27,762 nt of DNA from Okeania sp. SIO2F5 (GCF_010692685.1 NZ_JAAHGU010000008.1:233619-261380); one strand, 5' to 3'. Positions 1,911 to 18,690 are shown, counted from the first letter of the stretch. A program made the numbers and translations. Notes: generated by a model from the letters alone, not told the origin.

Positions 1911-2534
1911 TTATTGAGCTAATATTTCCCCATCTTTCTTAAAAAAATAAGTTTTATCAATGGATTCAATTTCATAATTTTCCCCAATTTTTTCTATCTC
2001 ATGAGAATAAACAATTCCTGTGGGAAGACTTTGTTGATAACTTTTATGTTCTCCTTGAAAACTCAATAGGAATAACCCATCTTGATGCAGATGTTTAGCA
2101 ACATTAATTAATCCCTTAATATCCTCATCAATATCCTTAGTATGATTTCTTAAGTCAGTCCGATCACCTCGTTGACTTATTACCCAAACTCCTCTACTAG
2201 AAACAGCGATATCAAAAGTTTCTTGGAGGTTCATATCATAGATATCTGCCTCTAGCAACTTTCCCCATCCTCCTAATCTCTTTCTGGCAATTTCGAGCAT
2301 TGATAAGGTAATATCTACTCCTGTAAATTCAGCTTCGGGAGCAAGTGGCAATAATTTTTCAGCAAATAATCCTGTTCCTACACCTAATTCAAGTATTTTT
2401 TTATGACCATCTTTCATCAAAGAATAGACTGCATTAGCCATTCCTTGATAATCATAATAGCCTTGGGTCATCAAAAGATCATAATAATCAGTAAAACTAT
2501 CGTAATAATCGGTGATATTAATATATTGACTCAT
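1911..2534 (-). CDS. Class I SAM-dependent methyltransferase (~207 aa)
   Basis: Motif I KILELGVGTGLFAEKLL (GxGxG) followed by an acidic residue at the end of beta-2 (GVDIT). The six-frame ORF extends to 2555 only by using a TTG codon. The first ATG is MSQYIN at 2534. Confidence 0.75.
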   Translation of the reverse strand: MSQYINITDYYDSFTDYYDLLMTQGYYDYQGMANAVYSLMKDGHKKILELGVGTGLFAEKLLPLAPEAEFTGVDITLSMLEIARKRLGGWGKLLEADIYDMNLQETFDIAVSSRGVWVISQRGDRTDLRNHTKDIDEDIKGLINVAKHLHQDGLFLLSFQGEHKSYQQSLPTGIVYSHEIEKIGENYEIESIDKTYFFKKDGEILAQ

Positions 2535-2706
2535 AGTTAATTTTGCAGGAGTCAAGTGCAGTCCCTAATAAATAATTTGAATTTTAGTAACTATAACCAT
2601 GATGATTTGATTGAAAAATCCGTATCAATAAATCAGCTATTTATTTTCTCAATTTGATGCAACTTAACAGGGAATTTGTATCAGACTTAATTTGGATACA
2701 ATTATT

Positions 2707-3112
2707 TGATTATCTGTTTCACTTTTTGCGATAAACATAAAACTTTTGGCTTTCATAGACACTAACAAAACTAAACCCATCTTGTTCCATAATTTCTTCT
2801 TTTTTCAATTGCTTAATGTAGTTCAACTTAAGTTTTTGTTGAGCTAATATTTCCCCATCTTTCTTAAAAAAATAACTTTTCTCAATGGATTCAATTTCAT
2901 CATTTTCCCCAATCTTTTCTATCTCCTGAGATTAACGAAGTCAGAAGTCAGAAGTCAGAAGTTAACCCACCCCTCGCCCCTCCCCCTCCCAGGAGGGGAA
3001 GTAGGGGATGCGTGAGCAACTCTCCAAAAATATTGCGCCTTAAAAGGCGGGGTTTTAGACCAATATTATTTTGATAAACAATTCCTGTGTGGAAATTTTG
3101 TTGATAACTTTA
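2707..3112 (-). pseudogene. Truncated paralogous copy of the methyltransferase 3' end plus 3' flank (~90% identical to 1782..2048), interrupted by a 140-bp MITE
   Basis: 2707-2930 aligns base-for-base with 1782-2005 with scattered substitutions. After the inserted element (2931-3072), 3073-3112 resumes the alignment with 2006-2048 (…aaacaattcctgtg[t]gg[a]a[a]a[t]tttgttgataactt…). The copy contains only about the last 45 codons. Confidence 0.75.
2931..3072 (+). mobile_element. MITE-like element A (AGTCAGA STRR head, C-rich/G-rich palindrome, ccttaaaagg...ttttagacc tail). Seen inserted into the duplicated methyltransferase fragment.
   Basis: It is absent from the paralogous copy at 2005/2006. 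An inverted copy lies at 14740-14850. Internal hairpin cccctccc-agg-aggggaag. Confidence 0.7.
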
Positions 3113-3159
3113 TAGGTTAGCTATGGGTAATTAGGGTTTGCTGAATAAAGTATGAGTAG

Positions 3160-3370
3160 TAGGGGTAGGAGTCAGGAGTCAGGAGTCAGGAGAAATGGGG
3201 AATTTAGAGGAGGTAGGAGTAAGAATTGTCCCTCAATTTTTTTGTCCGAAGGTTTGCCTTTTATGCTAACTTTTTGAGGGTTTTAGACTAAAACAAGCGC
3301 ATTTTTTGGGAATCGAAGAAAGCTCAAACCTTTACCTGTCAATGGTCTTAAAATTAATTGGCAAACCCTA
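3160..3370 (+). mobile_element. MITE-like element B (second copy at 24610..24830)
   Basis: aggagtcagg...agaaatggggaatttagaggaggtag...attgtccctcaattttt...ctaactt...acctttacctgtcaatg matches 24610-24830 with about 80% identity. Confidence 0.65.
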
Positions 3371-3424
3371 ATTATAAATATCTGGAAATCAAAGAATTAA
3401 TTTAATATTTGGAAAAGGTAGGCA

Positions 3425-3840
3425 ATAGGTAATTTCAGTTATCAGTTATTAGTAACTCTTCAATAAGGAGGCAAGAAAATACGGAATTCTCTTTTCTCTT
3501 GGTCAATTGGATATGGGGAGGTCTCCTCGTCACCCCACCCTACGGGAAGCTCCGAAGCTATACTGCTTTTTATCCCCTTAAAAGGCTATGCTTTATCAAC
3601 ATATTTACTTAACATAAAACTTGACAAAATAGACAAGTTATATTCAAGCCTTTAAAAGTTTTTTTTCAGAGAAAAAGTGTATTCAAAGGTATATTTGTTT
3701 TGATAACTTAAGTAGCTTTTCCTATCTATATGATTCTTTCTCCCTTCTCCCCTGCTCTCCACAAGGTTTTCAGGAGTTCCTTATAAGGGATAGCTTAAAA
3801 GGGGAGGCTTTAGACCAGGATTTTTCGGTCAAAAGAATAT
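3425..3840 (+). mobile_element. Composite MITE-like elements C and D (cagttatcagttattagta...ggaggcaagaaaatacggaattctctttt...ttggatatgggg... then ccttaaaaggggaggctttagaccaggatttttcggt). A direct copy lies at 11697..11812.
   Basis: The C module also occurs inverted at 14585-14695. The D module (3795-3836) closely matches 11769-11812. Confidence 0.6.
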
Positions 3841-3909
3841 CGTTGATTAGTAAATGCACAAATAATTTTATCCATCTACTTAGCACAATAATTTGATTGA
3901 AAAAAATCA

Positions 3910-6900
3910 TCAATTTCCTGCAAATTTTTGATAATCTTCTAGTAACCAATGAGGCAGTTTAGTTATATCTTCGATTCGTAATTGTTCAGAACGACAATAT
4001 AACATTGCTGCTAATAAATAATTTATAGTTTTTGGTGCTTCTATTCCTTTGGCAAGTTGAGCAGCTAACTGTCGTAAAAATTCTTGTTCGCTTTCTATTA
4101 AAGATTCATTTTGAATTTTGCTATTGAGTAATGCTTGATAACCTTTACCCATTTCACCCAAGTAAAAAGTTTCTAGTTTTTGAGGTTCTAAATTTATCCA
4201 AAAATCAGCCATTTGTTTTCTGATTTGACGCAATTCTTGAACCACAGATTCATCAGATGGGTCAATATAGTAAAGATTCACACTGCCCAATAATTGATTG
4301 ATAAATTTTTGCTGTGGAATGTCTAAATTATCTGTTTGATTTGCTGTTAAAACTACATTTTTTTCTGGTCTAACTTCAGCAGTTGTGACTGGAGAATTTT
4401 CTGGTAGATGAGGGGATTTAGATTTAAAAGCTTTTTCCAACTTCTGGGCAACTTCTCGACTTTCAAATATCTGTTTATAATCATCTATCAACCACTGAGG
4501 TAAACGATTTTTAGCATCTCTGACTAACATTTTGCTTGGAGGAAAATATAACATTGCCCCTAAAAATGTATTGATAGCTTTTGGATTAGTTAAACCCATA
4601 CTTGTCTCAGCTAATTCTTTGAGAAATTTCTGTTCATCTTCGGTTTGAGGTTCGTTTTGAATTCCACTTTTTAATAAAGCTTGATATGCTTGTCTAATTT
4701 TGCCTTGATAAGTATTTTCTAATTCTTTGGGAGCTACAGCTAACCAAAAATCAGCTATTTGTTTACGAAGTTGACGTAATTCTTCTATTAAAGATTGGTC
4801 AGTAGGATCGATTTCGTAGAGATTCACACAACCAATCAAACGATTGATAAATTCAGAAGTTAAAGAATTTTTATCTGTAGATTCTATAGTTTTTGGCGCG
4901 TGAATATTTTGCCATTCTTGGAATAATTCTTGAAATAATTTACCTATCTGTGTAGAGTAACTAAGACTGTCTAAAAATGAAGGGTTTTGCTCAATTTTTT
5001 CCAGAATTTCTTGCCGCTTTTGTTGACGTAACTGAGGATTAGTTGCTAGTTTCACTACTAAATTAATATAACTCTCTTCCCCATCAGCAATAAGATCGTC
5101 CATCTTTATCTCTCTGAGCAATGCTGATGCTTGTCGAAACCTTAAAGCATTTCCTTCAACAACTACTGGTGGAACTCCGACCATGAGTGGATCGACCAGA
5201 GAGGTTGCACCACCGTAAGGGAAAGAGTCTAAATAAATATCCGCTAATTTCAAACATTCTTTGATATCTGCTTGACTTGGTAATGCTTTAATTACGACCA
5301 AGCGCTTACTGTCGATACCATGACGTTTCAAAACAGACCGCATCTGTTTGATAAAAGGGGCAAATCGATAAGAATTAGTCCAGTTAGGATTAAAAGGATA
5401 CAAGACTAAAATAGAATTGGGCACTTTTGCTAGGATTTTGGCCCAAGTCTCCCGCATCTCCGGTATAATTTTGTAGAAATTAGCTCCAGAAATAAATATG
5501 GTGGTTTGGTCGGTTGCCCCCCAACTAGAGCGAATTGGTTTTACTCCTGAGGGGGGTTCGGCGATCGCATATCGGAAACAGAGTCCGGAATCTTCTAGGT
5601 TGGCCAGTTTTTCTGTATAATGTTCTTGGGTTGTCTCTGTTGGTGCAGTAATTTTACCGGAGATATAGTAGTCTATGGAGTGCATCCCGGTGGTAGTGGG
5701 AGAATTGATGGATGTAATTTGTATTCTGGCCAGTTTGTGTATTGCCAGCAAGGTAGAATTTTTGATAGTAGCAGTAATATTAGAGCCAATAAATAGAATA
5801 TCAAGGTTGTCGTTGCGAATAATTTGTGCTTGACTTTTCAATTCTTCTGGTAGTTGTAGAAATTTATCGGCGTGACTTTGGCAATATTTTTCTAAGGGAT
5901 GTCCGTTAGATTTTATTGCATAGAGAAATATCTCAAATTTACTCCGGTCTAAATGTTCAAATACTGGGAGTAAGGAATATGTTTCTGTTTGGGGAGAATA
6001 ATGATCTTTGAGAATTCCCAAGCGAATTTTTGGGCGGTTAAATGGGCGGTCGTTCATCTTATAATCTAACTCTAACCCACGATTTTTTAGAGCAAATTCT
6101 ATAATTTCTGCACGCTTGATGTAGAGATTTTTTAAATTGGGCGTAGTAGTAAAATATAGAGGAATCCAATTAGCATTTTCCACAAAAAACCAGGCGATAA
6201 CTTGCCATAATTCTGAGTCTGGATTAGTGGATATATTGTTATGCACATAATTCAACCATCCTACTAGAAAATTATGATAATTATCTGTTTCTCCTATTTC
6301 TTGAAAAAGTTGGGGAGAGGCAAACATAAATTTTAAATAGTCTGTAGCAAACCAGCTAGGTATGGGAGCTTTTTCGTATTTAATTCCTAGTCGATCTGCT
6401 CTTTGATAAAGCATCCCTGCCAATAAATACTGAATGGCTAAAGGTTGGTTAAATCCTTTGGCAAAATTAGCTTTTATTTTGTCTACAAATCTTTGTTCTA
6501 TTTCAGTTAAAGTTTCGTCTTTTATACCACTTGCTAATAATGCTTTGTGTGCTTGACCAAATGCTCCCAAGTAAACATTTTTGAGTTCTTCCGAAGTTTG
6601 AATATTCAGCCAGCATTCTGCAATTTGCTTTCTAATTTCTTGCAATCTAACTAATGCTGATTCATCCAACTGGTTTTGCTGATAAAGCTGAATATTCTGA
6701 TTTATTTCTGTCAGAGATGGTAATAAATTAGTTTTAACAGTAGGAACAACTTTTTGTTGTTCTATAGACTGAGGTTTTGGAGAATTGACTGACTGATTTG
6801 GTGTCTTAATTAAATCTGTTTCCCCACTGACCAAAACAGAGATAAGTAAATTAACTACAGAAGGAGATTGACTACATTTAAGACCTTCACGAATTTGAGC

Positions 6901-9900
6901 GATCGCTCCATTAGTATTTCCTCCTTTCAACATAGAAGCAGCCATTTTTATTGCTTCAATTGCATAATGTTCCCTAGCTTTATCAGATAATTTTTCTGCC
7001 ATTTTTGTTGGTAAATAAGTTTGAGTAATTTCTATAGCTTTCCGAGCATTTTCTATATTACCGCCAGACTGCATTAAGCGGGAAGTTTCCGAGGAGGAAT
7101 GTAAACGGAAACAAGCCAAAATTTCCGGTTCAAACCAAATAGGATAAAAAGCAGTTATTCGCTTCCAAATTTCCCAATCAGCCGCCGAATCTGCCTGAGA
7201 ACAAAAACCTCCTAAATTTTCATAAACCTTACGTTTTACTACCATCCCCACAACTTGAATTCGTTGTTCAATAGTAATTTTTTCTAAGAAATTTTCTATA
7301 ATACCTGGAGTTTTTCTTTCCAACACAGACAAATACTTTTTCTGGTCATATTCATCTATATAATAGTGGCGACAAAATGCTGCTCCTACTGTTGTATTTT
7401 GTTCAATTCCACGACGTAATTTTTCATAAAAACCAGGCAAGACAAAATCATCATCATGGAGTAGATGAATCCAATATCCTTTTGCTCTTTGTAGACAAAT
7501 ATTAAAAATCGGAGCTTGACCAATATCTTGTGGAAAATGTCGATAAAAATTAACTCTTTCTCCCCCTACCTTTCGGACAATTGCTTCTATTTCAGCTTGA
7601 ATTTTATGGTCTGGACAATCATTTACGACTTCTATCTGCATTTCTTCTAGGGCAGGAGCTTGTTGCAATACACTTTTGAGAGTTTGCTCTAAATATTTCG
7701 CCTTTTTATAAGTAGGAATCATCACAGACCAAAACGGTCGATGGTTATTATCTGACAATGGATTAATTTCTGGATATTCAATACCCATTTGATTATTTTT
7801 GAGAGTAGCTATTTGAGGAAATTTTTCTATACCTACTTCTAGTTGTTGTTCTCGTCTTACCGTTGCCCAAATCCAAGGTTTAGCAGATTTTAAAGAAACT
7901 AAATTAAACCCCGCTGCCATTAATAAATCTTTTAATTTTTCTTCAGTATAAGCATTGCCAGAAAAATAATATTGTTGATCTTTTGCCCCTTCCTCATCAA
8001 AATTTCCTAAACTTTCAGCGCTGTGGTCATGTACTTTAATTCTCAAATATCCTCCCGGTTTCAAAACCCGAAATATTTCTCGGAAATAACTTTTGACAAT
8101 AGAAATAGAACGGATGTGCTGAAAAACTATCGTCGAAAAAACAAAGTCGTAATTTTCATCAGCTAACTGTTGCAAATCATCGCCATTATTAATATATAGC
8201 TCTCCATTTTGTTTCCCATCAGCTAAATATTGTCGGGCAAACTGAATCATATTTTCCGAAATATCTACACCATCTACCCGTGCAAATTTTTCTCGCAAAT
8301 ACTTAATAAGACGACCAACACCACAACCGATTTCTAATACTTTCCACTCTGGTTTAACAGGGATACCTTCCAGAATTTGTGGCACCCAAATTTCCATTAA
8401 CTCTTTCCTAACTTGCTTTTTTTGTCCTGGAGAAAGCGTCTCCATTCCACTGTAAGCTAAGACTCGCTCAAAAATAGCTTCATCTAAAGAATTAACATTC
8501 CTAAAATAGCGTTGTATTTCTAACTGCCCGTGATTTATTTGAAATTGAATTTTGCCTAAATTTTTCCTATCTTCCATACCAGATAATTCCTTTGATTTAA
8601 GCTGTATCTCTGACTCTCCATGATTTATTGGAGATGAAATTTCTCCTGACTTTTTCCTATCTTCCACACTAGAAAATTCCTTTGATTTAACCTGCATCTC
8701 TAAATCTCTATGATTTATTGGAAATGGAATTTCTCCTGACTTTTTCCTATCTTCCATAGCAGATAATCTCTCTACTTTAATCCGATTAAAAGTCTGGATA
8801 AATACATCAGTCATAATCTTAGCCATTCGAGACCAAGAAAACTTTTGAGCTTGTGCTAAACCAGCAGTTATTAATTGTTGCCGAACTTCTGATTTTTGCA
8901 CTTCACCCAAAGCATTTACCAATCCATTAACATCATTATCATTAATATATAAAGCTGCTCTTCCTGCCACTTCTGGAATTGAAGCATTTTTACAAGTAAT
9001 AACTGGACAACCACAAGCCATTGCTTCTAAAATAGGCAGTCCAAAACCTTCATATTTTGATGGATAAACTAAAGCCATCGCTCCAGAGTAAGCCGATTTT
9101 AATTCTTGGTCACTCAGTTGTAATAAATGAATTTTACTATCTGAAATATATTTGCTTAATTCTGGCTCTACTTTTCTATTTCCCCCTATACAAACAATCT
9201 CAAATTCTGCGGATTTTTTGAATTTAGCAAAAGCTTGAAAGAATAACATAGTATTTTTATAACCTAGCCAACCTATTCTCTCACCCACTATCAGAAAGTA
9301 TGGGCGATGAATGTTATATTTCAACTGAAAATTAGTAACTTCTTGAGGGGTCGCTCTAGAAAATTTAGGTTCAATTCCGCAGGGAGCTACTCTGATAGAA
9401 TTTGCGGATATTTGAGGAAAATATTTTACTAAATCACGAGCTGTATTTTCTGAAATTGAAATATAAGAAATTGCCTGTTTAATACTACGATGTTTTTCTT
9501 GCCATGAAGGGTTATCAAGATTTTTAGCTAAAACTTCTGGAATCATATCATAAGCCATAAATATAGATGGCGTTAAGATAGGTGTTGTGTAATAAGTAGA
9601 AATGAAAATATCAGCATTTTCTTCATCACATATTTGCTGCAAAATTTGACGGTCTGCATCTATTCTGCCGTAATTATATCCAGGGATAACACGATATTTT
9701 ATGCCGGGAATTTTTGGTGCAGTTTTTGCTCTGTCAAGCACTAAAATATTTTTAGCAAAACTATCTTTTGACCATACTTCCAACAAAGACTTCCAGACAC
9801 GGGCAATACCTGTATTATTTATTTGGAAAAATACACCATCAATAAGAACCTTGAAATCTAATAGCTGCCAATTTTTCGATTTTCTTTCGGCAATATTTTC

Positions 9901-11583
9901 AGAGTCTAACTCAGTTAACTGCTGCTGATTTTTTAGTTTCTTTTCTGTCACTTTTTCATAGTCTACCTCAGTTAAAGATTCTTTCCTTTTCTCAGGTTTA
10001 TATCTACCTATCCTAAATATGCTGTGAAACTCGGAATTTGATAAACTTTTCTCTGTTAATAAGTGCAGAGATTCTCCATCCGAACATAAATTAAGTTTAA
10101 ACTTTTGAGCAATTACAGATAATGCTTTTTTGTTAAATATAGAAATGTGTTGACCTTCTTCCAGAGCATAATACCACCAATCATTAGGACGAGGATTATC
10201 AGGTGGCAATAGCTTTGTACTAAATAAAATATTTCTAGTTTGTTGCAGTATCTTCTCAATTTCTGCCAGAGGATTTATGAAATGTTCAAATACTTCAAAA
10301 GCTGTGACTATTTCATATTTTTGTTCCCTATTTATTTCTCCTTCCCATCCTTGAGAAAAAATATTTTGGCAATATTTATCATATCCATAAAAATCTAATC
10401 CTAAGTCACGCATCATCCGGACAAATAAACCATACCCACACCCATAATCTAGGAATTTATCATTGGCATTAAAGAAGTTGAGAATTAAATTTTCTGTAAT
10501 CAAAGAAAAATTTTGATTTCTAGAAACCAAACCCACATCACTACTAGCAATTGCCTCTGTATAAGCTTCCCCTAACCAGTAAGGATTTTCCGTTTGTACA
10601 AAACCACAATTAGAACATTGAAAATAGTCAACATTATATTTATTTAAAACCTTAGCATTATCAAATTTGTGAGATATTGAACCACAAACTTTGCAATGAA
10701 CATTTTGAATTTGTAAACCACCACTAAACATTGTTTTTTCTGTAAAATTGTCTGCTGGAATATTACGAATAATAGAGGGAGGATGAGTCAGAGGAAAAAT
10801 CATTTCCTCCACAGACATATTGGCAAACTTATTAATACTTGAAGTGTGAGTAGCACCTTGACCAAAACCAATATTAGAAACTAAATTAACCTTGGGTAAA
10901 ATAGTTAAACCATGATAATTCCAACAGGCAAATGTCCAAGCATAAGCCCAAGAATTAAACCCTTGATAATTCTTCTGAAAAATCTCCGACCAATATTGAA
11001 CTGCCCTACTATTTTGTAGAATATTTTCTAACCACTTACTACCTCTAAGCTTCGACCATAATTGCATTTGATTATCATAATTTTTCCATGCTCTTCGCCA
11101 AGTTGCCCAACCCCAACAATGGGGATAGCGAGAGAAATAATAACTAGACTCTATTGGATTATTACCAAACTGAAAATTATCTCCAGATATAGCCATAATC
11201 CTCTCATCATTTCGATATCTTTCTAATAACTCTTCACAAAACCTAAAAAAAGTTAAATGAGGTACACAGTCATCCTCCAAAATAATTGCTGATTCTACCA
11301 AACTAAAAACCCAATTTAATCCATTATAAATACGCTCTCTACAACCTAAATTCTTCTCAGAATAATTAGTCAAAACTTCACAATTCCAATCAACCTGATC
11401 GATTATCTTTCTTGCTGCCATACACCTCTCAACTTCTCCATATCTATCGAGGCGAGGAGCATCAGCTATTACAAATAATTGAAGAGGCTTTACTTGACGA
11501 ATTGCCTCAAATACTTTTGCCGTTGTATCTGGTCGATTAAATATAATTATAACTACAGGAGTTGTTAATTGAAATTGAGTCAT
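3910..11583 (-). CDS. Giant multi-domain glycosyltransferase/methyltransferase (2557 aa). Domain order: GnT-I(GT13)-like GT-A; Zn-ribbon plus class I MTase; GT4; 3x31-aa repeat linker; class I MTase; GT2-like GT-A; helical module; OGT/GT41-like; two more helical modules.
   Basis: Uninterrupted 7.67-kb ORF with an ATG start. The motifs recognised in each domain are listed in the domain entries below. Confidence 0.9.
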   Translation of the reverse strand: MTQFQLTTPVVIIIFNRPDTTAKVFEAIRQVKPLQLFVIADAPRLDRYGEVERCMAARKIIDQVDWNCEVLTNYSEKNLGCRERIYNGLNWVFSLVESAIILEDDCVPHLTFFRFCEELLERYRNDERIMAISGDNFQFGNNPIESSYYFSRYPHCWGWATWRRAWKNYDNQMQLWSKLRGSKWLENILQNSRAVQYWSEIFQKNYQGFNSWAYAWTFACWNYHGLTILPKVNLVSNIGFGQGATHTSSINKFANMSVEEMIFPLTHPPSIIRNIPADNFTEKTMFSGGLQIQNVHCKVCGSISHKFDNAKVLNKYNVDYFQCSNCGFVQTENPYWLGEAYTEAIASSDVGLVSRNQNFSLITENLILNFFNANDKFLDYGCGYGLFVRMMRDLGLDFYGYDKYCQNIFSQGWEGEINREQKYEIVTAFEVFEHFINPLAEIEKILQQTRNILFSTKLLPPDNPRPNDWWYYALEEGQHISIFNKKALSVIAQKFKLNLCSDGESLHLLTEKSLSNSEFHSIFRIGRYKPEKRKESLTEVDYEKVTEKKLKNQQQLTELDSENIAERKSKNWQLLDFKVLIDGVFFQINNTGIARVWKSLLEVWSKDSFAKNILVLDRAKTAPKIPGIKYRVIPGYNYGRIDADRQILQQICDEENADIFISTYYTTPILTPSIFMAYDMIPEVLAKNLDNPSWQEKHRSIKQAISYISISENTARDLVKYFPQISANSIRVAPCGIEPKFSRATPQEVTNFQLKYNIHRPYFLIVGERIGWLGYKNTMLFFQAFAKFKKSAEFEIVCIGGNRKVEPELSKYISDSKIHLLQLSDQELKSAYSGAMALVYPSKYEGFGLPILEAMACGCPVITCKNASIPEVAGRAALYINDNDVNGLVNALGEVQKSEVRQQLITAGLAQAQKFSWSRMAKIMTDVFIQTFNRIKVERLSAMEDRKKSGEIPFPINHRDLEMQVKSKEFSSVEDRKKSGEISSPINHGESEIQLKSKELSGMEDRKNLGKIQFQINHGQLEIQRYFRNVNSLDEAIFERVLAYSGMETLSPGQKKQVRKELMEIWVPQILEGIPVKPEWKVLEIGCGVGRLIKYLREKFARVDGVDISENMIQFARQYLADGKQNGELYINNGDDLQQLADENYDFVFSTIVFQHIRSISIVKSYFREIFRVLKPGGYLRIKVHDHSAESLGNFDEEGAKDQQYYFSGNAYTEEKLKDLLMAAGFNLVSLKSAKPWIWATVRREQQLEVGIEKFPQIATLKNNQMGIEYPEINPLSDNNHRPFWSVMIPTYKKAKYLEQTLKSVLQQAPALEEMQIEVVNDCPDHKIQAEIEAIVRKVGGERVNFYRHFPQDIGQAPIFNICLQRAKGYWIHLLHDDDFVLPGFYEKLRRGIEQNTTVGAAFCRHYYIDEYDQKKYLSVLERKTPGIIENFLEKITIEQRIQVVGMVVKRKVYENLGGFCSQADSAADWEIWKRITAFYPIWFEPEILACFRLHSSSETSRLMQSGGNIENARKAIEITQTYLPTKMAEKLSDKAREHYAIEAIKMAASMLKGGNTNGAIAQIREGLKCSQSPSVVNLLISVLVSGETDLIKTPNQSVNSPKPQSIEQQKVVPTVKTNLLPSLTEINQNIQLYQQNQLDESALVRLQEIRKQIAECWLNIQTSEELKNVYLGAFGQAHKALLASGIKDETLTEIEQRFVDKIKANFAKGFNQPLAIQYLLAGMLYQRADRLGIKYEKAPIPSWFATDYLKFMFASPQLFQEIGETDNYHNFLVGWLNYVHNNISTNPDSELWQVIAWFFVENANWIPLYFTTTPNLKNLYIKRAEIIEFALKNRGLELDYKMNDRPFNRPKIRLGILKDHYSPQTETYSLLPVFEHLDRSKFEIFLYAIKSNGHPLEKYCQSHADKFLQLPEELKSQAQIIRNDNLDILFIGSNITATIKNSTLLAIHKLARIQITSINSPTTTGMHSIDYYISGKITAPTETTQEHYTEKLANLEDSGLCFRYAIAEPPSGVKPIRSSWGATDQTTIFISGANFYKIIPEMRETWAKILAKVPNSILVLYPFNPNWTNSYRFAPFIKQMRSVLKRHGIDSKRLVVIKALPSQADIKECLKLADIYLDSFPYGGATSLVDPLMVGVPPVVVEGNALRFRQASALLREIKMDDLIADGEESYINLVVKLATNPQLRQQKRQEILEKIEQNPSFLDSLSYSTQIGKLFQELFQEWQNIHAPKTIESTDKNSLTSEFINRLIGCVNLYEIDPTDQSLIEELRQLRKQIADFWLAVAPKELENTYQGKIRQAYQALLKSGIQNEPQTEDEQKFLKELAETSMGLTNPKAINTFLGAMLYFPPSKMLVRDAKNRLPQWLIDDYKQIFESREVAQKLEKAFKSKSPHLPENSPVTTAEVRPEKNVVLTANQTDNLDIPQQKFINQLLGSVNLYYIDPSDESVVQELRQIRKQMADFWINLEPQKLETFYLGEMGKGYQALLNSKIQNESLIESEQEFLRQLAAQLAKGIEAPKTINYLLAAMLYCRSEQLRIEDITKLPHWLLEDYQKFAGN
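3913..4900 (-). other. C-terminal pair of paralogous ~140-aa alpha-helical modules. A third copy lies at about 6300..6700, before the GT41-like domain.
   Basis: Shared pattern L(R/Q)(E/Q)(I/L)RKQ(I/M)A(E/D)(C/F)W(L/I)N/A...Y(L/Q)G...(A/G)(Y/H)(K/Q)ALL(A/K/N)SGI(K/Q)(D/N)E...(I/T)N(Y/T)(L/F)L(A/G)AMLY across all three copies. Confidence 0.7.
4930..6065 (-). other. Domain 6: OGT/HMW1C-type (GT41-like) glycosyltransferase catalytic domain
   Basis: RPKIRLGILKDHYSPQTETYSLLPVFEHLDRSKFEIFLY; IFISGANFYKIIPEMRETWAKILAKVPNSILVLYPF; DSFPYGGATSLVDPLMVGVPPVVVEGNALRFRQASALL. These are collinear with human OGT segments (RLRIGYVSSDFGNHPTSHL...; [75 protein letters not shown]). Recalled from memory. Confidence 0.6.
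6990..7750 (-). other. Domain 5: GT2-like GT-A glycosyltransferase
   Basis: WSVMIPTYKKAKYLEQTLKSVLQQ at the N-terminus, an acidic IEVVNDCPD region, and LLHDDDF as the DxD motif. Confidence 0.6.
7950..8480 (-). other. Domain 4: class I SAM methyltransferase (Methyltransf_11/23-like)
   Basis: VLEIGCGVGRLIKYL (motif I), DGVDISENM, VLKPGGYL. Confidence 0.75.
8490..8765 (-). repeat. Intragenic tandem repeat, about 3 x 93 bp, encoding (M/V)EDRKKSGEIxxPINHxxxEIQxKSKEFSx
   Basis: The DNA-level repeat is visible at 8560-8765 (ttttcctatcttccata/c... x3). The protein repeats are 31 aa each. It forms a linker between the GT4 and second MTase domains. Confidence 0.85.
8860..9890 (-). other. Domain 3: GT4-family (GT-B, retaining) glycosyltransferase
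   Basis: VLIDGVFFQINNTGIARVW at the N-terminus. EGFGLPILEAMACGCPVI (E-x7-E signature) at 8997-9050. Confidence 0.8.
10150..10710 (-). other. Domain 2: Cys4 zinc-ribbon plus class I SAM methyltransferase (the architecture of sugar C-methyltransferases)
   Basis: CKVCGS...(24 aa)...CSNCGF, then LDYGCGYGLFVRMMRDLG (motif I) and EIVTAFEVFEHF. Confidence 0.7.
10715..11575 (-). other. Domain 1 of the giant protein: GnT-I (GT13)-like GT-A glycosyltransferase domain. Proteins of this type are often annotated HlpA-like in bacteria.
   Basis: PVVIIIFNRPDTT...LFVIADAPR...AIILEDDCVPHLTFFRFCEEL...MAISGDNF...PHCWGWATWRRAW parallels GnT-I motifs (ILVIACDR / VVVEDDLEVAPDFFEYF / CVSAWNDNG / GLGWLL). Recalled from memory. 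Confidence 0.5.
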
Positions 11584-11811
11584 TTTTAGTTTAATAGGAA
11601 AGAAGGAAGAAGGAATAAGGAAGAGATAAGAAGGAATAAAGTAGATAAATCTACAGATAAATCAAGTTCAACTAAAGATTTGTTTAAGAAGGAGAAAGTC
11701 ATTTCAGTTATCAGTTATCAGTACCTCTGTAATAAAGAGGCTTTAAATACGAAATTATCTTTTTTTTTCCTTAAAAGAGGAGGCTTTAGACCAAGATTTT
11801 TCGGTAATAAA

Positions 11812-12205
11812 GTTGATAGCTGATATCTCACTACTGAATCCTGAGAAACTTTTAATTATGGAAAATATTTCCATTATTTTTTCTCCTTTCAAAGTAATCA
11901 AAACTGATAGCTGACTGCTGAGTGCTAAATGCTTATAAGCTAATAAAGCTGATAGCTGATACCTGAGTGCTGAATGCTTATAAACTTTTAATTATGGAAA
12001 ATATTTCCATTATTTTCCCCTCCTTTCAAAGTAATAAAAACTGATAGCTGAATGCTGAGTGCTAAATGCTTATCAGGTAAGAAAGCTGATAGCTGATACC
12101 TGAGTACTGAATGCTGAGAAACTTTTAATTCTGGGAAATATCTCAATTACTTTTTCCTCCTCTAAAGGTAATAAAGCTGAATCCTCACCGCTGAATGCTT
12201 AACCA
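11812..12205. promoter_or_regulatory. Three tandem ~137-bp repeats 230-620 bp upstream of the giant gene start. Each contains the near-palindrome atggaaaatatttccat, which is degenerate in copy 3.
   Basis: Copies at 11812-11947, 11948-12084 and 12085-12205. Each unit also carries ctgatagctga twice and ctgagtgctgaatgct. The palindromes are at 11858-11874 and 11994-12010. Confidence 0.6.
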
Positions 12206-12325
12206 ATGGATAATTGATAATTATTTTGCTTGGGAATCTTTGTACAAAAAGTGAAAAATTTTATATTTTTATTATCTAAAAGAAATAGTTGATCTACAAG
12301 GTTTAAAAATTAAATTCATTATCCA

Positions 12326-12856
12326 TTATCCATTATCCATTAATGACGTCGCTTTATATAAAATATCTTGATGAGACCGTTCCAGTAAAGTCTCATTGAT
12401 AGAATTAGATAATACTGCAACAGGTTCATATAATGGTCTTAAAAAAGAGTCAATTGCTTTTCTATCTCCATAACGTACTTCTATCAACATAAACTTTGGT
12501 TGGTATTTATCAAAATCAATACCTTGCAACACATCTAATTCAAAACCTTCAACATCCAACGAAAACAAATCTATATTTTCAACTCCATACTTATCAAGAA
12601 TTGCAGTTAGTGTCCTTACTCGTACATTAATTTCATAACTATGATTAATATTTTGAACTTGACAACCCGCTTTTAAATGAACCTTTTTTTCCTCCTCTGA
12701 CTTCATAGCTCCATCAACAAAAGACATAAGATTACAATAGTACATTTTTATATAATCCTGACCATAATTAAAAGGAACCAAAGCATAATTTTCAACCGCT
12801 GACTTAGACCGATTAATTCTACATTTTTCTGCTAACTCTGGTATTGCCTCTATCAA
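12326..12856 (-). CDS. FkbM-family methyltransferase C-terminal portion. It is in the same frame as 12890..14038 and separated from it by a single TGA, so it is probably the continuation of that gene.
   Basis: IDLFSLDVEGFELDVLQGIDF is the characteristic FkbM motif (IDLLKIDVEGAE..VLKG). The ORF as listed begins with TTG, not ATG. The segment between the two ORFs (…SQSNT*YFEKYKNWQGILIEAIPE…) is in frame. Confidence 0.65.
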   Translation of the reverse strand: MIEAIPELAEKCRINRSKSAVENYALVPFNYGQDYIKMYYCNLMSFVDGAMKSEEEKKVHLKAGCQVQNINHSYEINVRVRTLTAILDKYGVENIDLFSLDVEGFELDVLQGIDFDKYQPKFMLIEVRYGDRKAIDSFLRPLYEPVAVLSNSINETLLERSHQDILYKATSLMDNG

Positions 12857-12889
12857 AATACCTTGCCAGTTTTTGTACTTCTCAAAATA

Positions 12890-14038
12890 TCAAGTATTAC
12901 TTTGACTTATCCCATCATTCGCCCCAGCTTCAATAAAAAATCCATTTTCCCAAGTTAAGTAAGAAGCAAGTTTAAGATCGAGCTGATTCAAAGCATAAGA
13001 TTTTCTCATTAAATCAGGTTTTATTTCTAATGCCTTTTGCTGATAAATATTAGCCTCAAATAATCTACCCTGTTTCTGTAAAATATTACCAATACTCCAA
13101 TATATACCTGCCGACTTTGGTTCAAGTGCAATAACTTTTTGATAGTAAGCGTTCGCCTGTTCTAGCTGACCTTTTTGGGAATAAATTTTGCCTAGTTTTG
13201 CATAAACTATTGCCAAGTTTGGTTGTGATTTTATTGCTTTGTTATAAGAACGAATAGACTTTTCAATTTGACCTTTAGAATAATAAAAATCCCCTAATCC
13301 CTGATAAGCTTCAGCAGCATAAGGTTGATTTTTAATAGCTTCGTAATAAGCCAAAATCTGATTATCTTGACTGTCTAGATTTTTATTTTTTCTTTTAGCT
13401 CTTGCTTCACCTTGACCCAAAGAAATACCCAAGCAAGACTGCTTTTGACTAGGTAATTTTAAATCCGATAAAAAATCATCACTTTGAAAAAAAATAGAAG
13501 TACAGCTTTTATATCTTTGACTAGGAACTAAACCATAAAAATCAATACGTTTAAATCCTTGATGATGAAGCAAAATTACTCCCCTATCATTTTCCTCTCT
13601 ATCCGAATTATCAAATACTATCCAGCCATTTTTAGATAATTTTTCACCACATATTTCAGCACATTTAACTCGCTCAATTCCATCAATAATAATCACATCA
13701 AAATCACCATTATCATAATTCTGAATTTCCTCAACATATCTTTGCCTATCTTCCCTCAAAACTAGCTTCACATTTTGAGGAATATAAGTTGAAACATTGA
13801 CAAAATAATCAGGATTATGTTCTACAGAAACCACCTGCTTAACTCGGTCAGCGTACCAAAAAGTTGACTGTCCGCTCCCATATTCAAATACTCGAAAATC
13901 GCTCTTTAACTTATCCTCAATAAATTCAATAGCAGGATAAGAATACCAAGGAAGAGGATGATAATTATAATCTATAGATTTTCCTTCTTTTAATGAATTG
14001 AGCCATCCTGAAGTTTCTAGATAGTTCAAATTAGTCAT
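12890..14038 (-). CDS. N-terminal part of a methyltransferase-TPR-FkbM protein: class I MTase-like domain, then 4 TPR repeats, then the FkbM SAM-binding motif. It ends at an in-frame TGA.
   Basis: ATG start. VFEYGSGQSTFW...DVIIIDGIER (MTase-like). AYYEAIKNQPYAAEAYQGLGDFYYSKGQIEKSIRSYNKAIKSQPN... (TPR). The C-terminus FIEAGANDGISQS is the FkbM-family motif I. Confidence 0.75.
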   Translation of the reverse strand: MTNLNYLETSGWLNSLKEGKSIDYNYHPLPWYSYPAIEFIEDKLKSDFRVFEYGSGQSTFWYADRVKQVVSVEHNPDYFVNVSTYIPQNVKLVLREDRQRYVEEIQNYDNGDFDVIIIDGIERVKCAEICGEKLSKNGWIVFDNSDREENDRGVILLHHQGFKRIDFYGLVPSQRYKSCTSIFFQSDDFLSDLKLPSQKQSCLGISLGQGEARAKRKNKNLDSQDNQILAYYEAIKNQPYAAEAYQGLGDFYYSKGQIEKSIRSYNKAIKSQPNLAIVYAKLGKIYSQKGQLEQANAYYQKVIALEPKSAGIYWSIGNILQKQGRLFEANIYQQKALEIKPDLMRKSYALNQLDLKLASYLTWENGFFIEAGANDGISQSNT

Positions 14039-14117
14039 ATTATTTGAGCATTAGTATTTAGTGTGTTGAAAACTAAAGGAAACTGATATAGCGTGTTTCA
14101 ACTTATTGAGGTTAGTT

Positions 14118-14240
14118 CATTAATTGATAATGGATAACCACCTCTGGTTAAAACCGTTCTTGATTGAATATAAGGAAATATTATTTATTTTTTTCCTCTT
14201 TGATTGCTATGTTATAGAGCCATCAAAAGATTAACAATAA
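14118..14240 (+). mobile_element. MITE-like element E (cattaattgataatggataaccacctctggttaaaaccg...gattgaatataaggaaatattattt). Other copies are at 22335..22400 and a partial one at 12196..12230.
   Basis: Direct alignment of the three regions. Confidence 0.55.
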
Positions 14241-14584
14241 ATTTATATATAAATAATTTTGTCTGCTTACTTAAATTTTTTTCTTATTTTCTATTCCCTA
14301 CTCCCGCGTAAAAAAGGAATTTTGTACCTCACGCTTCTTGGTAATTACTATAGAAAAAACTTCTACATCCAATTACCAACTTGATAATACAAAATAACAA
14401 TAGTATAAATCCATAACTCTCAGCTAGCTATTAAAGAAAGAAAGCAAAGAAACAAGAGTTTACTTAAGATAACCTATCAGATAGCCAAAAATTATGAGAA
14501 CTACTCATTGAAACTACCATAGACATCTCCAGAAAAGAGATAGTAAGGAGTAAGCGGTAGGGATGAAGTCTCCCTTCCCTCCAG

Positions 14585-14850
14585 TCCCCAAGAGAACGCC
14601 ATATCCATCAGACCAACAAAAAAGAGAACTCCGTATTCTCTTGCCTCCCTATGACAGCAAGTACTGATAACTAATAACTGATAACTGAAATGACTGTTTA
14701 CTTAATTACCGAACAACATTATCAAAATAATTGGGTCGCGCAACCCCACCTTTTAAGGCGAAATATTCTTGAAACCTTGCTCAAATCCCCTACTTCCCCT
14801 CCACCGGAGGGGGAGGGGCGAGGGGTGGGTTAACTTCTGACTTCTGACTT
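14585..14850 (-). mobile_element. Inverted copies of MITE modules C (14585-14695) and A (14740-14850), a mirror of the left flank of the locus
   Basis: The reverse complement of 14600-14695 matches 3425-3520. The reverse complement of 14740-14850 matches 2935-3062, including aatatt[t/g]cgccttaaaagg[t/c]ggggtt and the AGTCAGA tract. Confidence 0.65.
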
Positions 14851-14990
14851 CTGACTTCAAATCCCCGTTACAAAAATAACTTCTGACTTCTAACTTTTGA
14901 GTTTTGACTTCAAATCCCCGTTACAAAAATAACTTCTAACTTTTGACTTTTGAGTTTTGACTTTTGACTTTAATCTACTGTGATATTATA
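14850..14990. repeat. STRR heptamer block (CTTCTGA / CTTTTGA) with an embedded ~50-bp tandem duplication (caaatccccgttacaaaaataacttct x2)
   Basis: Direct reading. Confidence 0.8.
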
Positions 14991-15073
14991 TTAGAAATCA
15001 GTTAACATAAGTTAATATACCAGGATTAAAAAATAGTCCCAATAGTATAAAAAGATAAGAAGGAGCAACCCCA

Positions 15074-16915
15074 GTGAATAATAAAAGGTGGAGAAATGCT
15101 GGCCTATATGCCCTATTAGCAATAGTAGTCATCGCCTTAGCAACAGCATTCTTCGATCAACAACCCCAAACCAGCGAAACCTGGAAATATAGTCAATTTA
15201 TTCAGCAGGTAGAAACCAAAAACGTAGACAGAGTAAGCATCAGCGCCGACCGTACAGCAGCACGAGTCAAAGTCGCCGACGGTAGTATAGTCCGCGTTAA
15301 CCTACCCAACGACCCAGACCTAATAAACATCCTCACCAAAAACAACGTAGACATTTCCGTACTCCCCCAAAGCGAAGAAGGTTTCTGGGTTAGAGCATTA
15401 AGTAGTTTATTCTTCCCCGTCCTATTATTAGTGGGACTATTTTTCCTACTACGTCGTGCCCAAAGTGGACCTGGTAGCCAAGCTATGAACTTTGGTAAAT
15501 CCAAAGCAAGAGTCCAAATGGAACCCCAAACCCAAGTCACATTCGGCGATGTAGCAGGTATTGAACAAGCCAAACTAGAACTAACAGAAGTAGTAGACTT
15601 CCTCAAAAATGCTGATCGCTTCACAGCAGTAGGCGCAAAAATTCCCAAAGGAGTATTGTTAGTAGGTCCTCCGGGAACAGGTAAAACCCTATTAGCAAAA
15701 GCAGTAGCTGGGGAAGCAGGAGTACCATTCTTCTCCATCTCCGGTTCAGAATTTGTAGAAATGTTTGTGGGTGTAGGTGCTTCCCGCGTCCGCGACCTAT
15801 TTGAACAAGCAAAATCTAACGCTCCCTGTATCGTATTTATAGATGAAATTGATGCGGTGGGTCGTCAACGGGGTGCTGGTTTAGGTGGTGGTAATGATGA
15901 AAGAGAACAAACCCTCAACCAGCTACTTACCGAAATGGACGGTTTTGAAGGCAATACAGGTATCATTATTATTGCAGCTACTAACCGCCCAGATGTTCTA
16001 GATGCTGCCCTACTCCGACCAGGTCGTTTTGACCGTCAAGTAGTAGTAGACCGCCCTGACTATGCAGGTCGTCTAGAAATTCTCAATGTTCATGCTCGTG
16101 GTAAGAGTCTATCTAAAGATGTAGACCTAGAAAAAATTGCTCGTCGAACTCCTGGATTTACTGGAGCAGACTTGTCTAACCTATTAAATGAAGGAGCTAT
16201 TTTGGCAGCTCGTCGCAACTTAACTGAAATCTCTATGGACGAAGTTAATGATGCTATTGACCGGGTATTAGCTGGTCCAGAAAAGAAAGACCGAGTAATG
16301 AGCGAGAAGCGTAAGGAGTTAGTAGCGTATCACGAAGCTGGTCATGCTTTAGTCGGAGCGTTGATGCCTGATTATGACCCAGTACAGAAAATTAGTATTA
16401 TTCCTCGCGGTCGTGCTGGTGGTTTGACTTGGTTTACTCCTAGCGAAGACCGGATGGACTCTGGTTTGTATTCTCGTGCTTATCTACAAAATCAGATGGC
16501 TGTAGCTTTGGGTGGTCGTCTTGCTGAGGAGATTATTTTTGGTGATGAAGAGGTGACTACTGGTGCTTCTAACGATTTACAGCAGGTTGCTAATGTGGCA
16601 AGGCAAATGGTGACTCGCTTTGGCATGAGCGATCGCCTTGGTCCAGTTGCTCTTGGTCGTCAGAACGGTAATATGTTCTTAGGTAGGGATATTATGGCGG
16701 AGCGTGATTTTTCTGAGGAAACTGCTGCTGCTATTGATGATGAGGTGCGCAATTTGGTAGAGCAAGCTTATCGTCGGGCGAAGGAAGTATTGGTAACTAA
16801 CCGTCATATTTTGGATAAGTTAGCCGAGATGTTGGTTGACAAGGAGACTGTAGACTCTGATGAGTTACAGGAGTTGTTGGCAACTAATGATGTGAAGATG
16901 GCGGCTTTGATATAG
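15074..16915 (+). CDS. ftsH: ATP-dependent zinc metalloprotease FtsH
   Basis: GTG start 11 nt after AAGGAG. Two N-terminal TM helices, Walker A GPPGTGKT, Walker [10 protein letters not shown], second region of homology (ATNRPDVLD), and HEAGHAL zinc-binding motif. Full length, 613 aa. Confidence 0.95.
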
Positions 16916-17068
16916 GGCTATAGCAGAAGGAAGAAGGCAGAAGGCAGAAGGAAAAACCTAGCGTTGTCTAGAGTTTTAACCTTTTGATCTGCCCTCACCT
17001 TTCCTTCGACTTCGTATGATCTGAAATTTTTCTCCTCTTTAGTTAGTCAGGGATTACTTCTAACTTCT

Positions 17069-17097
17069 GTAGGGGCGAATGACTATTCGCCCTACTA
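17069..17097 (+). terminator. Stem-loop downstream of ftsH: gtaggggcgaat-gact-attcgccctac, an 11-bp stem with one bulge
   Basis: The palindrome is seen directly. There is no U-tract, so intrinsic-terminator function is uncertain. Confidence 0.35.
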
Positions 17098-17939
17098 ACT
17101 CCTGACTTGCGCTACGCGCTATAGCTGACATCATTAGGTAATTTATCCTAAGTTCAATCAATACTATTACAGTTGCACCGACTGCCGATATTGAGTGTCT
17201 GGAATTTACATCTTACATTTATGTACTATTTGTCAATAGCTAGAATTACTTAGGCATTTATACTTGTTCAAAATTTGTTTTTTTGAAGTTATCTGACTCT
17301 GCTGAAAATTACCAGATTTGAGATGCAATTAACGTAAATACAAGGTTGTAGCTTTCTTGAAAAGGTCTTTTTTTTGATTTAAATATAACATTGGCATCAT
17401 ATCTTAATGTACAGAGTATGATACAAATCGCTGAAATAACGCAAGTTCGTGAAATATTTTGTAATAATTAGCGAAAAATGAGGCAATTTTGATTAATATA
17501 AATAATATTAAAAATAAATTTAATTAGTATAAATTATGTAAAAGGGTGACAATTTAGTTTTGTTTTTGAAATGAATTTTGCCCTCCCTTGGAGACAGTAG
17601 AACAGAAAGTAATGATAATTTTCTGATTACTTTGTCATACTCTAATTAGTTGGAGCGATCGCTACAGCAGAAGAATTCAAATTGTCAGAAATCAGAAGTG
17701 TGTTTGTGCAGCATTCGGACCGAAAGGCAGAAAGGAAAATTGCTTATGGATAGTCAATGACCGATCACCTTAATATCTTAATAACCCCAAACAATTTTCA
17801 GCACCCCCGTTGACTATGGGTGATTAAACCCGTAAAAGAAAAGATAATTTATGCAAATTATACAGTCATTCAATAATAGTAAATTAACTATTATCCACAT
17901 CCTCAAAAAGTGCATCTAAATCTTGATATCCACTCACCA

Positions 17940-18690
17940 CTTTCTAATTCTTTCTTCTCCTAAATTTAGCAGGCTTAAATGGAGTTGCTTGCCTATACGC
18001 ATGACTTTTTATTCAATTAATTTTCCTTACTCAAAGGCGATGAACTATTCAGGATTTTTTTCCCAGAAGCAATACCACCAAGATTTTCATTCTCTGAAGC
18101 TCAAGAACTACTTACTTATTTCTTCTCTAATCAAATCTTTCCATCCATGGCAATTGAGTGAAAAATTACCAAGATTTTCATTCTCTGAAGCTCCGAAAAA
18201 AAATCGCGACTCAAAGGAATTTCCGGTTGCATCCTCACAAAAATTCTGATATCATCAGATTTAAATGGGGCTGTTCGTCTATGCGCATGACTTTTTATTC
18301 AACAAAATTCCCTTGCTTAGAGGCGATGAACTATTTAGGAATTTTTTCCCTGAAGCAATACCACCAAGATTTTCATTCTCTGAAGCTACCTGAAGAATAC
18401 TGATTTTTCCCTCATCAAATCTTTCCATCTATTGGGACTTAAACAAAATAGAGCCAGAAAATAGGCTTAAATATAGACGGGCAAAGGCTTTTACGTCAAA
18501 AAGGTATAAATCCTGAATTACCAAAGGTTCTAGCCATTTTTAGGGAATCGACGTAATTCCCTTGTCTAGAGTGGCTTTGACGCATTTTTTCGACCAGAAA
18601 ATGTTTAAGTACCACTATGACGATTGAGTGGAAAATCACCAATTTTTTTTTCATTCTCGGAAGCTCCTCCAGAAAAAATCGCGACATCCC
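17940..18690. repeat. Repeat block: two ~135-bp copies at 287-bp spacing (17975-18110 and 18262-18395) plus two partial copies (18168-18215 and 18636-18690, the latter inverted in part). It contains the recurring core ccaagattttcattctctgaagct.
   Basis: ttaaatgg(a/g)g(t/c)tg(c/t)t(t/c)g(c/t)ctat(a/g)cgcatgactttttattcaa...aggcgatgaactatt...gaagcaataccaccaagattttcattctctgaagct occurs twice. The three six-frame ORFs here are translations of the repeats. Confidence 0.75.
18481..18592 (-). mobile_element. MITE-like element F, minus orientation. Other copies are at 23120..23290 (+) and a split copy at 22262..22700.
   Basis: Reverse complement gcgtcaaagccactctagacaagggaattacgtcgattccctaaaaatggctagaacctttggtaattcaggatttatacctttttgacgtaaaagcc matches the other copies. 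Confidence 0.6.

Follow-up and report, generated by a model that had tools for sequence, protein, structure and literature searches.

Tandem heptamer repeats of heterocystous cyanobacteria (short tandemly repeated repetitive sequences, STRR) were reportedly described by Mazel et al. in 1990, and Nostoc punctiforme is said by Elhai et al. (2008, Genome Research) to carry small dispersed repeats (SDRs), hairpin units of 21-27 nt that are inserted at fixed places inside other repeats. Cyanobacteria are also rich in MITEs (miniature inverted-repeat transposable elements), among them Nezha of Anabaena and Nostoc, the MaeMITEs of Microcystis and thousands of others found by MUST (PMC3184786), and a catalogue of TAACTGA direct repeats covers Beggiatoaceae, Cyanobacteria and Bacteroidetes, with "no mechanism evident" by which they spread (MacGregor 2015, PMC4679880). 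Here we analyse 27,762 nucleotides of Okeania sp. SIO2F5 (NZ_JAAHGU010000008.1:233619-261380; the window, by which we mean this whole stretch), in which a glycan locus with a giant glycosyltransferase gene lies among repeats reminiscent of all of these. A sequence-only reading had seen the locus bracketed by inverted copies of a ~140-bp MITE (element A) and the giant gene by direct copies of a second, composite one (element C-D), and had proposed that recombination between the copies would invert or excise the genes. Our findings favour a simpler view. The flanking repeats probably belong, as ordinary copies, to two abundant families of non-autonomous mobile elements that are small and non-coding (families 1 and 2), whose bracketing of genes is a coincidence of copy density, and we are about as confident that the block they flank is neither a composite transposon nor a cassette that can be inverted or excised.

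Both copies of element A, the family-1 elements of the window, are present, with bounds that move from 2931-3072 to 2936-3074 and from 14740-14850 to 14719-14858. The left copy (A-left; 2933..3077, plus strand, 83.9 bits by nhmmer; element proper 2936-3074, 139 nt) has (GAAGTCA)x3.7 as its head, then a hairpin insert rich in C/G, a CGCC-TTAAAA-GGCG hairpin, GGGTTTTAGACC and a TTATTTTGA end, and has TAA on both sides (2933-2935, 3075-3077). It cuts a truncated remnant (2697..3116, minus strand) that duplicates the 3' end of the neighbouring methyltransferase gene: 2697-2932 plus 3078-3116 match 1772-2050 (91% over 246 nt in the repeat search), and 2697-2942 is 91% identical to 1772-2017, which covers the methyltransferase 3' end and downstream sequence. 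When 2936-3074 is removed together with one TAA, the remnant aligns without a gap to the intact paralogue at 1960-2050 (...CTCATGAGAATAAACAATTCCT vs ...CTCCTGAGATTAAACAATTCCT). This reconstructed empty site shows that family 1 inserts cleanly at TAA, be it with a 3-bp duplication or next to a fixed TAA target, and so bears out the earlier view of A as a small mobile non-coding repeat.

The right copy (A-right; 14719..14973, minus strand; core plus heptamers 14719-14858) scores 60.1 bits in its core and 18.5 and 17.6 bits in two partial heads. Its tail is degenerate (GGGGTTGCGCGACC where GGGGTTTTAGACC is expected) and its head is lengthened at 14859-14973 by two more TTATTTTTGTAACGGGGATTTGA units among heptamer repeats, an extension that Tandem Repeats Finder (TRF) reports as a tandem repeat of period 53. 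Over ~130 alignable nt the two copies share a perfectly identical stretch of 53 nt, with a mean column identity of 87% (167 columns, flanks included); outside the head they differ in hairpin loop, central segment and tail. The same 53-mer is also found exactly in Okeania sp. SIO3B5, and a 24-nt subvariant in 10 other blocks of our family search (see below), so the identity within the A pair reflects a conserved subfamily head rather than a special kinship of the two copies. As for the C/G "palindrome" of the window copies (AACCCACCCCT..CCCCTCC-loop-GGAGGGG), it is an optional hairpin unit of ~30 nt within the heptamer head, which many family-1 copies have and others are without.

The C-D copies and the inverted C copy, which belong to family 2, are likewise real once their bounds are corrected by up to ~20 nt. 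The motifs of A and C-D occur 2-3 times each in the window against 0-0.01 expected from shuffles: twice for an A core 24-mer and for a C 33-mer (0 expected each) and three times for the tail motif CTTAAAAGNNGNGGNTTTAGACC (0.01 expected). Only part of the composite picture of C-D stands, however. The copy downstream of the giant gene (3428..3832, plus strand; nhmmer head 3434-3500, tail 3768-3835) does carry a nested MITE with a 9-bp target-site duplication (TSD), yet it is not an element of ~400 nt; it owes that length to two insertions nested in a single copy of ~110 nt. Head and first hairpin (3428-3516) are followed by a small hairpin insert (~3517-3560), by the 5' half of a TTAAAA hairpin (3566-3585) and, beyond the second insert, by the tail (3794-3832). 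The second insert, which we call MITE-X (3586..3793, plus strand, 208 bp), has terminal inverted repeats (TIRs; ends CTATGCTTTATCAAC and CCTTATAAGGGATAG, matching at 10/15 positions) and is flanked by the 9-bp duplication CTTAAAAGG at 3577-3585 and 3794-3802; joining 3585 to 3803 restores the family-2 consensus TTTTTATCCCCTTAAAAGGGGAGGCTTTAGACC. In other genomes MITE-X is found with different duplications of 8-9 bp (CTTTGAAAG, CCGTCAAC, CTTCTTCAG), so that at least four different targets are on record. MITE-X lies here inside the loop of the TTAAAA hairpin, and copies elsewhere often lie in the loops of CCCC...GGGG hairpins, which suggests that it may target hairpin loops.

The second C-D copy (11698..11807, plus strand, 77.0 bits by nhmmer) is a full family-2 element and the proximal unit of a degenerate tandem array. 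It lies 114 nt upstream of the start codon of the giant gene, with its TAACTGA-repeat end facing that start, and adjoins a tandem array of ~2.7 units of 137 nt (11803..12175, plus strand; TRF and repeat search), also upstream of the giant gene. The inverted C copy (14599..14695, minus strand, 21.0 bits, HMM positions 3-69) is a 5' fragment with (TCAGTTA)n head and first hairpin and without a tail, 85% complementary to 3463-3516. Yet another dispersed repeat, 'E', follows A-left (3117..3375, plus strand; ~260 nt with an (AGGAGTC)n head) and has a second copy at 24576-24832 (blastn). It is also present at loci L012, L044, L047, L018, L035 and L056 (blastn), and its copies in several Okeania, Dapis and tar-biofilm metagenome-assembled genome (MAG) loci are 70-81% identical. 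The 1.35-kb spacer 2556-3909 thus reads as a chain of pseudogene remnant, A-left, repeat 'E' and family 2 with its two nested inserts.

How common such elements are was assessed by scanning one genome per species for the tail CTTAAAAGNNGNGGNTTTAGACC, which both families share, and by lining up the flanks in 8-kb blocks around the matches (at least 120 blocks). There are at least 120 exact tail matches, all of them cyanobacterial save possibly a few; hosts among the matches listed are nine Okeania genomes, Dapis, tar-biofilm MAGs, Nostoc, Calothrix, Cylindrospermum, Anabaena, Trichormus and Crocosphaera, and the A-type core is found beyond Okeania in Nostocales and Crocosphaera. The matches resolve into two consensus families with one build: family 1, TTAACGAAG(TCAGAAG)n TTATTTTTGTAACGGGGATTTGAGCnnCGCTCCAAAAATATTTCGCCTTAAAAGGCGGGGTTTTAGACCCATATTATTTTGATAA, with the termini TTAACGAAG... 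and ...TTTTGATAA, and family 2, (G)GTCATTTCAG(TTATCAG)n TACCTCTGCAATAAGGAGGCTTGAAATAAGGAATATTCTCTTTTTTTATCCCCTTAAAAGGGGAGGCTTTAGACCACAATTTTTCGGTAA. Elements of either family are non-coding, measure 110-140 nt and consist of a variable tandem heptamer head, a variable first hairpin and an A/T-rich spacer; then come the NNCC-TTAAAA-GGNN hairpin, which is conserved, and GGNTTTAGACC (TTTAGACC), and TTTT(C)GRTAA forms the end. Family 1 has heads of (GAAGTCA)n, whereas those of family 2 read (TCAGTTA)n, which is TAACTGA in reverse complement, and the first hairpin of both families itself receives smaller hairpin insertions. At two loci (L082 853-947 and L119 5519-5613) the loop of the family-1 first hairpin is reversed (CGGGG-CTCAAAT-CCCCG vs CGGGG-ATTTGAG-CCCCG), a loop flip such as a DNA palindrome would be expected to give.

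Densities were obtained by running hidden Markov models (HMMs) built from the matches on 65 Okeania 8-kb blocks, where a copy was counted if it lay more than 1 kb away from the match that had selected the block. Full copies of family 1 occur at 1.6 per 100 kb (mean spacing ~63 kb) and those of family 2 at 4.8 per 100 kb (~21 kb), while fragments of any sort occur at 13.3 per 100 kb, or one every ~7.5 kb. By extrapolation from these block densities, genomes of several Mb would hold hundreds of full copies. Abundance of this order, together with an absence of structural variants at the locus, had been named beforehand by the sequence-only reading as what would turn the bracket into a chance arrangement, and this is largely what we find. 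At such densities, the probability that another full copy of the same family lies no more than 12 kb away on a given side is 0.17 (family 1) and 0.44 (family 2); the window (27.8 kb) holds two full family-1 copies, one family-2 copy that is intact and full-length, the family-2 composite with its nested inserts and several fragments, in total the same order as the background, if with more family-1 copies than it predicts; and another repeat family, of ~190 nt, likewise brackets genes in it (18430-18617 vs 22230-23288). The bracket as such is therefore not special. Placement is overwhelmingly intergenic, with just 4 of 207 elements inside open reading frames (ORFs).

If the bracket were functional or active, inverting the genes through the A pair, excising the giant gene through the direct C-D pair or having delivered the locus by MITE-associated events, one would look for its traces in the gene order of relatives. 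In the window, a gene for a SAM-dependent (S-adenosylmethionine) methyltransferase (1911..2555, minus strand, 214 aa; Pfam Methyltransf_25/11/12), the giant multidomain gene (3910..11583, minus strand, 2557 aa; methyltransferase, GT4, GT2 and GT41 domains by Pfam) and a TPR-FkbM methyltransferase gene (12326..14038, minus strand; Pfam) are followed by an FtsH protease gene (15074..16915, plus strand; Pfam), a conserved neighbour that adjoins the locus in all relatives and anchors the synteny. For comparison we used a sister lineage, H (five loci from 8 contigs, including GCA_003838225.1), the genomes JAAHGX and JAAHHA of the window's own lineage (W), Okeania sp. SIO3I5 and Dapis sp. BLCC M126. 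Lineage H, with ~97% gene identity to the window, does not differ from it in the genes present, their order or their orientation; SIO3I5 and Dapis have FtsH divergent from TPR-FkbM and then the giant gene (orthologues of 2497-2627 aa in relatives), and Dapis also retains the downstream methyltransferase. Gene order is thus identical from Okeania to Dapis, and neither inversion nor excision is seen in any assembly examined (W, H, SIO3I5, Dapis).

No family-1 copy is present in the 20.9 kb of lineage H or at the SIO3I5 and Dapis loci, and since the gene order is kept in relatives devoid of A, the locus predates its A copies. The suggestion that it arrived with the repeats therefore fails, FtsH-side gene order being the same in SIO3I5 and Dapis without an A copy, whereas the suggestion of remodelling holds for the spacers, whose make-up varies even where the genes of two lineages are 97% identical. 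In L124 (GCA_003838225.1), window 2087-3892 is deleted (1.8 kb) with a junction at TTGAT microhomology, a loss that takes in the greater part of the methyltransferase gene and the spacer with all its repeats. A second H strain lacks window 2728-3565, with the junction at CTTTTT, and in a third the repeats are others, next to a family-2 copy that is probably an orthologue. Further, the TPR-FtsH spacer of lineage H (window 14073-14933) is wholly replaced by unrelated sequence, with homology returning inside a heptamer array beside FtsH. Because the H spacers are deleted or replaced, absence of A from them may mean loss as well as never-insertion. Within the W lineage, JAAHGX is identical across A-right and both flanks, and JAAHHA (L134) has the same left junction of A-left and a contig that stops within the element, the kind of assembly break that repeats typically cause.

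Can the repeats nonetheless recombine? About 25-30 nt is the minimum usually quoted for RecA-dependent exchange in E. coli, and the 53 nt of exact identity in the A pair exceed this E. coli-derived figure, so that a rare inversion is physically possible and this pair, alone among those of the window, could in principle act as substrate. That both A copies are missing from all relatives examined, and that the spacers holding them are highly variable, would also suit an active bracket. The direct C-D copies, on the other hand, have ~100 nt in common with a longest exact match of 18 nt, and the inverted C copies share 22 nt, which makes excision of the direct pair by homologous recombination improbable. 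Moreover, in SIO3I5 the family-2 copy on the downstream side of the giant gene runs opposite to the upstream units, the variants that do occur are spacer deletions at 5-6-nt microhomologies outside the elements (TTGAT, CTTTTT) besides wholesale spacer replacement, and pairs at such spacing are expected by chance. Taken together, we regard an active bracket as very improbable. The likeness to composite transposons and invertible segments, in which copies of the same element flank genes, here one pair inverted and one direct, ends where the block itself is considered: it is ancestral, syntenic in relatives without A, and was never seen elsewhere, inverted or deleted. To our minds, the glycan locus is an old and stably syntenic block with churning spacers.

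One copy departs from this churning. The family-2 copy at 11698-11807 is kept in position and orientation in lineage H, SIO3I5 and Dapis, and family-2-like units, each of 100-137 nt, stand in tandem upstream of the giant gene in every lineage (window 11803-12175; L130 12833-13139; L131 11386-11700), with three tandem units and TAACTGA repeats up to the ATG in SIO3I5 and Dapis. This copy is thus an ancient and fixed part of the upstream region, which brings up the idea that the elements, or at least this unit, are selected RNA or regulatory modules rather than purely selfish DNA, serving as leaders or in translational control with their TAACTGA repeats, or as weak bidirectional terminators. The common orientation of the upstream units in four lineages, the repeats abutting the ATG in Dapis and SIO3I5 much as reported for Beggiatoaceae (PMC4679880), the terminator-like sites (hairpin plus T-run) in both A copies and the family-1 core, ~85% identical by eye between Okeania and Nostocales, speak in its favour. 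So does the TTAAAA hairpin, the stem of which is paired in 92.6% of cells (76.6% for the weaker GGNTTTAGACC hairpin) and covaries, one pair being G-C 27 times, C-G 21 times and U-A three times, mostly switching between families; its covariation score was reached by none of 500 shuffles and by no slid control. Since covariation exceeds all shuffles, this hairpin is a selected feature of the element, acting as DNA or RNA.

On the other side, the wobble-type exceptions in the hairpin stem fit either strand, as far as we read its variants. RNAalifold of 33 family-1 cores found no covariation within that family and predicted just two short invariant hairpins; the long first hairpin that we had seen by eye is absent from this consensus and was dropped as a consensus feature. 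Rfam gave no match at gathering thresholds across the whole window, and at E<=1 in 2900-3900 and 11580-12330 its sole match was at chance level. Nor do the elements face genes in any preferred way: among 203 intergenic copies, the head faces a gene start 41 times and a gene end 39 times in family 1, and 42 versus 54 times in family 2. (In the window itself, all five copies point the heptamer end toward a downstream gene start, a pattern lost in those 203 copies elsewhere.) Promoter-like sites show no excess either, with 58 against a shuffled expectation of 50. We therefore consider a regulatory role of the elements, or of the upstream unit, a minority option, to be taken seriously but with a chance well below even.

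Compared to described cyanobacterial MITEs, our assignment of families 1 and 2 to mobile elements finds much common ground in that they are ~110-140 nt long, non-coding, intergenic, high-copy and hairpin-forming, are present or absent between close relatives and insert cleanly; the nested MITE-X, with its TIRs and 9-bp TSD, is a textbook case. Unlike such MITEs, the two families are without convincing TIRs, bear a variable heptamer array at one end and showed no cognate insertion sequence (IS) in the blocks inspected; Nezha was likened to them by description, and family 1 in Nostocales could be an element that already has a name. As in the STRR and TAACTGA repeats, heptamers stand in tandem in intergenic DNA, the family-2 head (TCAGTTA)n is the reverse complement of (TAACTGA)n, and the placement next to the giant-gene start codon in Dapis and SIO3I5 resembles that in Beggiatoa. 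What sets our repeats apart from the catalogued ones is that many arrays are physically joined to a conserved element core of ~90 nt: in Okeania, the matching core adjoins, on the same strand, 59% of the (TCAGTTA) arrays that have two or more units and 70% of those made of (GAAGTCA) (13/31 and 3/7, respectively, in the ascertainment-free subset), so heptamer arrays there are not free-standing repeats. Finally, the AACCCACCCCTAACCCCTCC..GGAGGGG and TTATTTTTGTAACGGGGATTTGA units of ~25-30 nt, nested in the family-1 head, resemble by description the Nostoc SDRs, apart from their host being an oscillatorian here.

Another option is that the families derive from IS200/IS605-type elements in the manner of palindrome-associated transposable elements (PATEs), their hairpin tail being a transposon end or the omega-RNA scaffold for the TnpB and TnpA copies of these genomes. 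The A-left insertion is also compatible with a fixed short target (TTAA or ATAA) and no true duplication, the subterminal hairpins are conserved, and TnpB/OrfB_IS605 fragments lie nearby, upstream of FtsZ in locus L002 and beside FtsH in lineage H. Against this, no gene adjoins the tail matches that we inspected and there is nothing upstream but a short repeat head (within those blocks), an IS605 remnant at 27419-27762 has no HMM match to either family, and no omega-RNA (HEARO-type) match was obtained with Rfam. An IS200/IS605 origin hence strikes us as scarcely probable. Other vehicles fared no better. Neither tRNA nor tmRNA was found as an integration target, the single match to a viral contig was a chance match inside a 481-aa ORF with unrelated flanks, which discards a phage vector, and the plasmid collection gave one weak, unannotated match. 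A full-text literature search for the motif strings returned only unrelated papers.

Several points weigh against reading families 1 and 2 as ordinary mobile elements that flank the locus by chance. Family-2 ends are not inverted repeats (by eye), and the TIRs of family 1 are weak, TTAACGAAG matching the reverse complement of the other end (TTATCAAAA in Okeania, TTACCGAAA in Nostocales) at 6-7 of 9 positions, again by eye. The inspected blocks yielded no transposase partner, and one reconstructed empty site underlies the family-1 target or TSD. A pair of family-1 copies inside 12 kb, when relatives have none, is somewhat above the background prediction (~0.19 expected per 12 kb), and local hopping or another local process may be behind it. 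The densities come from blocks of other Okeania species that were picked for holding one element, so that clustering could inflate them, and the scan gives copy number as an "at least" figure rather than as a genome-wide count for the source strain. All assemblies are short-read drafts or MAGs and as such blind to inversion isoforms of low frequency. Lastly, the upstream family-2 unit, kept across genera, may mean a function beyond selfishness.

With these points in mind, our preferred reading of two ordinary mobile families may be put as follows. In Okeania and related filamentous cyanobacteria, the families would fill the long spacers between genes. Copies insert cleanly and are themselves targets for other MITEs, giving rise to nested composites. 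Movement would occur in trans by some enzyme, and the conserved hairpins may be what this enzyme, or else replication or repair machinery, recognises. Copies in the spacers turn over fast, and the genes between them stay in fixed ancestral order. A bolder version, to which we would give a modest chance at best, sees in families 1 and 2 an undescribed pan-cyanobacterial class of heptamer-headed elements with a three-hairpin core that is moved structure-specifically without TIRs, the heads seeding STRR/TAACTGA arrays and the upstream units having been exapted as leader. Such a class, if true, would explain the patchy distribution of TAACTGA repeats among Cyanobacteria, Beggiatoaceae and Bacteroidetes.

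As originally posed, the question of a bracket matters little: repeats flanking a cluster are to be expected where long spacers commonly hold such elements, and this cluster is old and stable. Its by-products have some value for cyanobacterial genomics. They include consensus sequences and HMMs for two families that break short-read assemblies, evidence that many STRR/TAACTGA arrays are heads of dispersed elements rather than independent repeats, a worked example of three-level nesting, and a conserved tandem unit upstream of a giant glycosyltransferase gene that is a candidate leader.

The window as a whole has 34% G+C and is dense in heptamer repeats, with period-7 arrays (TRF) at 2937-2962, 3435-3453, 11704-11722, 14663-14688, 14833-14858 and ~15 other places. 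Its TPR-FkbM gene is split in two ORFs (12890-14038, 382 aa; 12326-12856, 176 aa), as it is in lineage H (292 + 227 aa), while SIO3I5 has one intact orthologue of 565 aa that is 70% identical; the split may reflect a pseudogene or be programmed. The giant gene carries three in-frame tandem repeats of 90 nt (8513-8782); the sister lineage, whose alignment passes over 8605-8692, seems to have two. To the right of FtsH follow genes for a tachylectin-like protein, a protein of unknown type, DndE, ComFB, ThiD and FtsZ. Just downstream of FtsH, the sister lineage carries ~400 extra nt with a Cas12f1-like_TNB (TnpB) fragment that is absent from the window (window 16952-17122 vs L124 7053-7388). The tachylectin-like gene has three tandem repeats of 150 nt (19695-20141; 93-99% identical), a region that is shortened or different in two strains of the sister lineage. 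Copies of the ~190-nt repeat family lie inverted on either side of this gene and of a gene for 606 aa (18430-18617; 22230-22343 + 22625-22720; 23097-23288), the middle copy being apparently split by ~280 nt with weak family-2 matches and (TAATTGA)/(AATTATT) heptamers.

At its right end, the window leaves the JAAHGX contig, to which it is 100% identical over 10352-27600 (JAAHGX010000014.1, assembly GCA_010672305.1), and from 27600 tracks contig JAAHID010000111.1, on which fragments of OrfB_IS605 lie upstream of FtsZ. A differently placed segment of the sister lineage (L124 reverse complement, 16417-16560) is 99% identical to window 27582-27725, and this match at another place indicates that a mobile piece marks the breakpoint.

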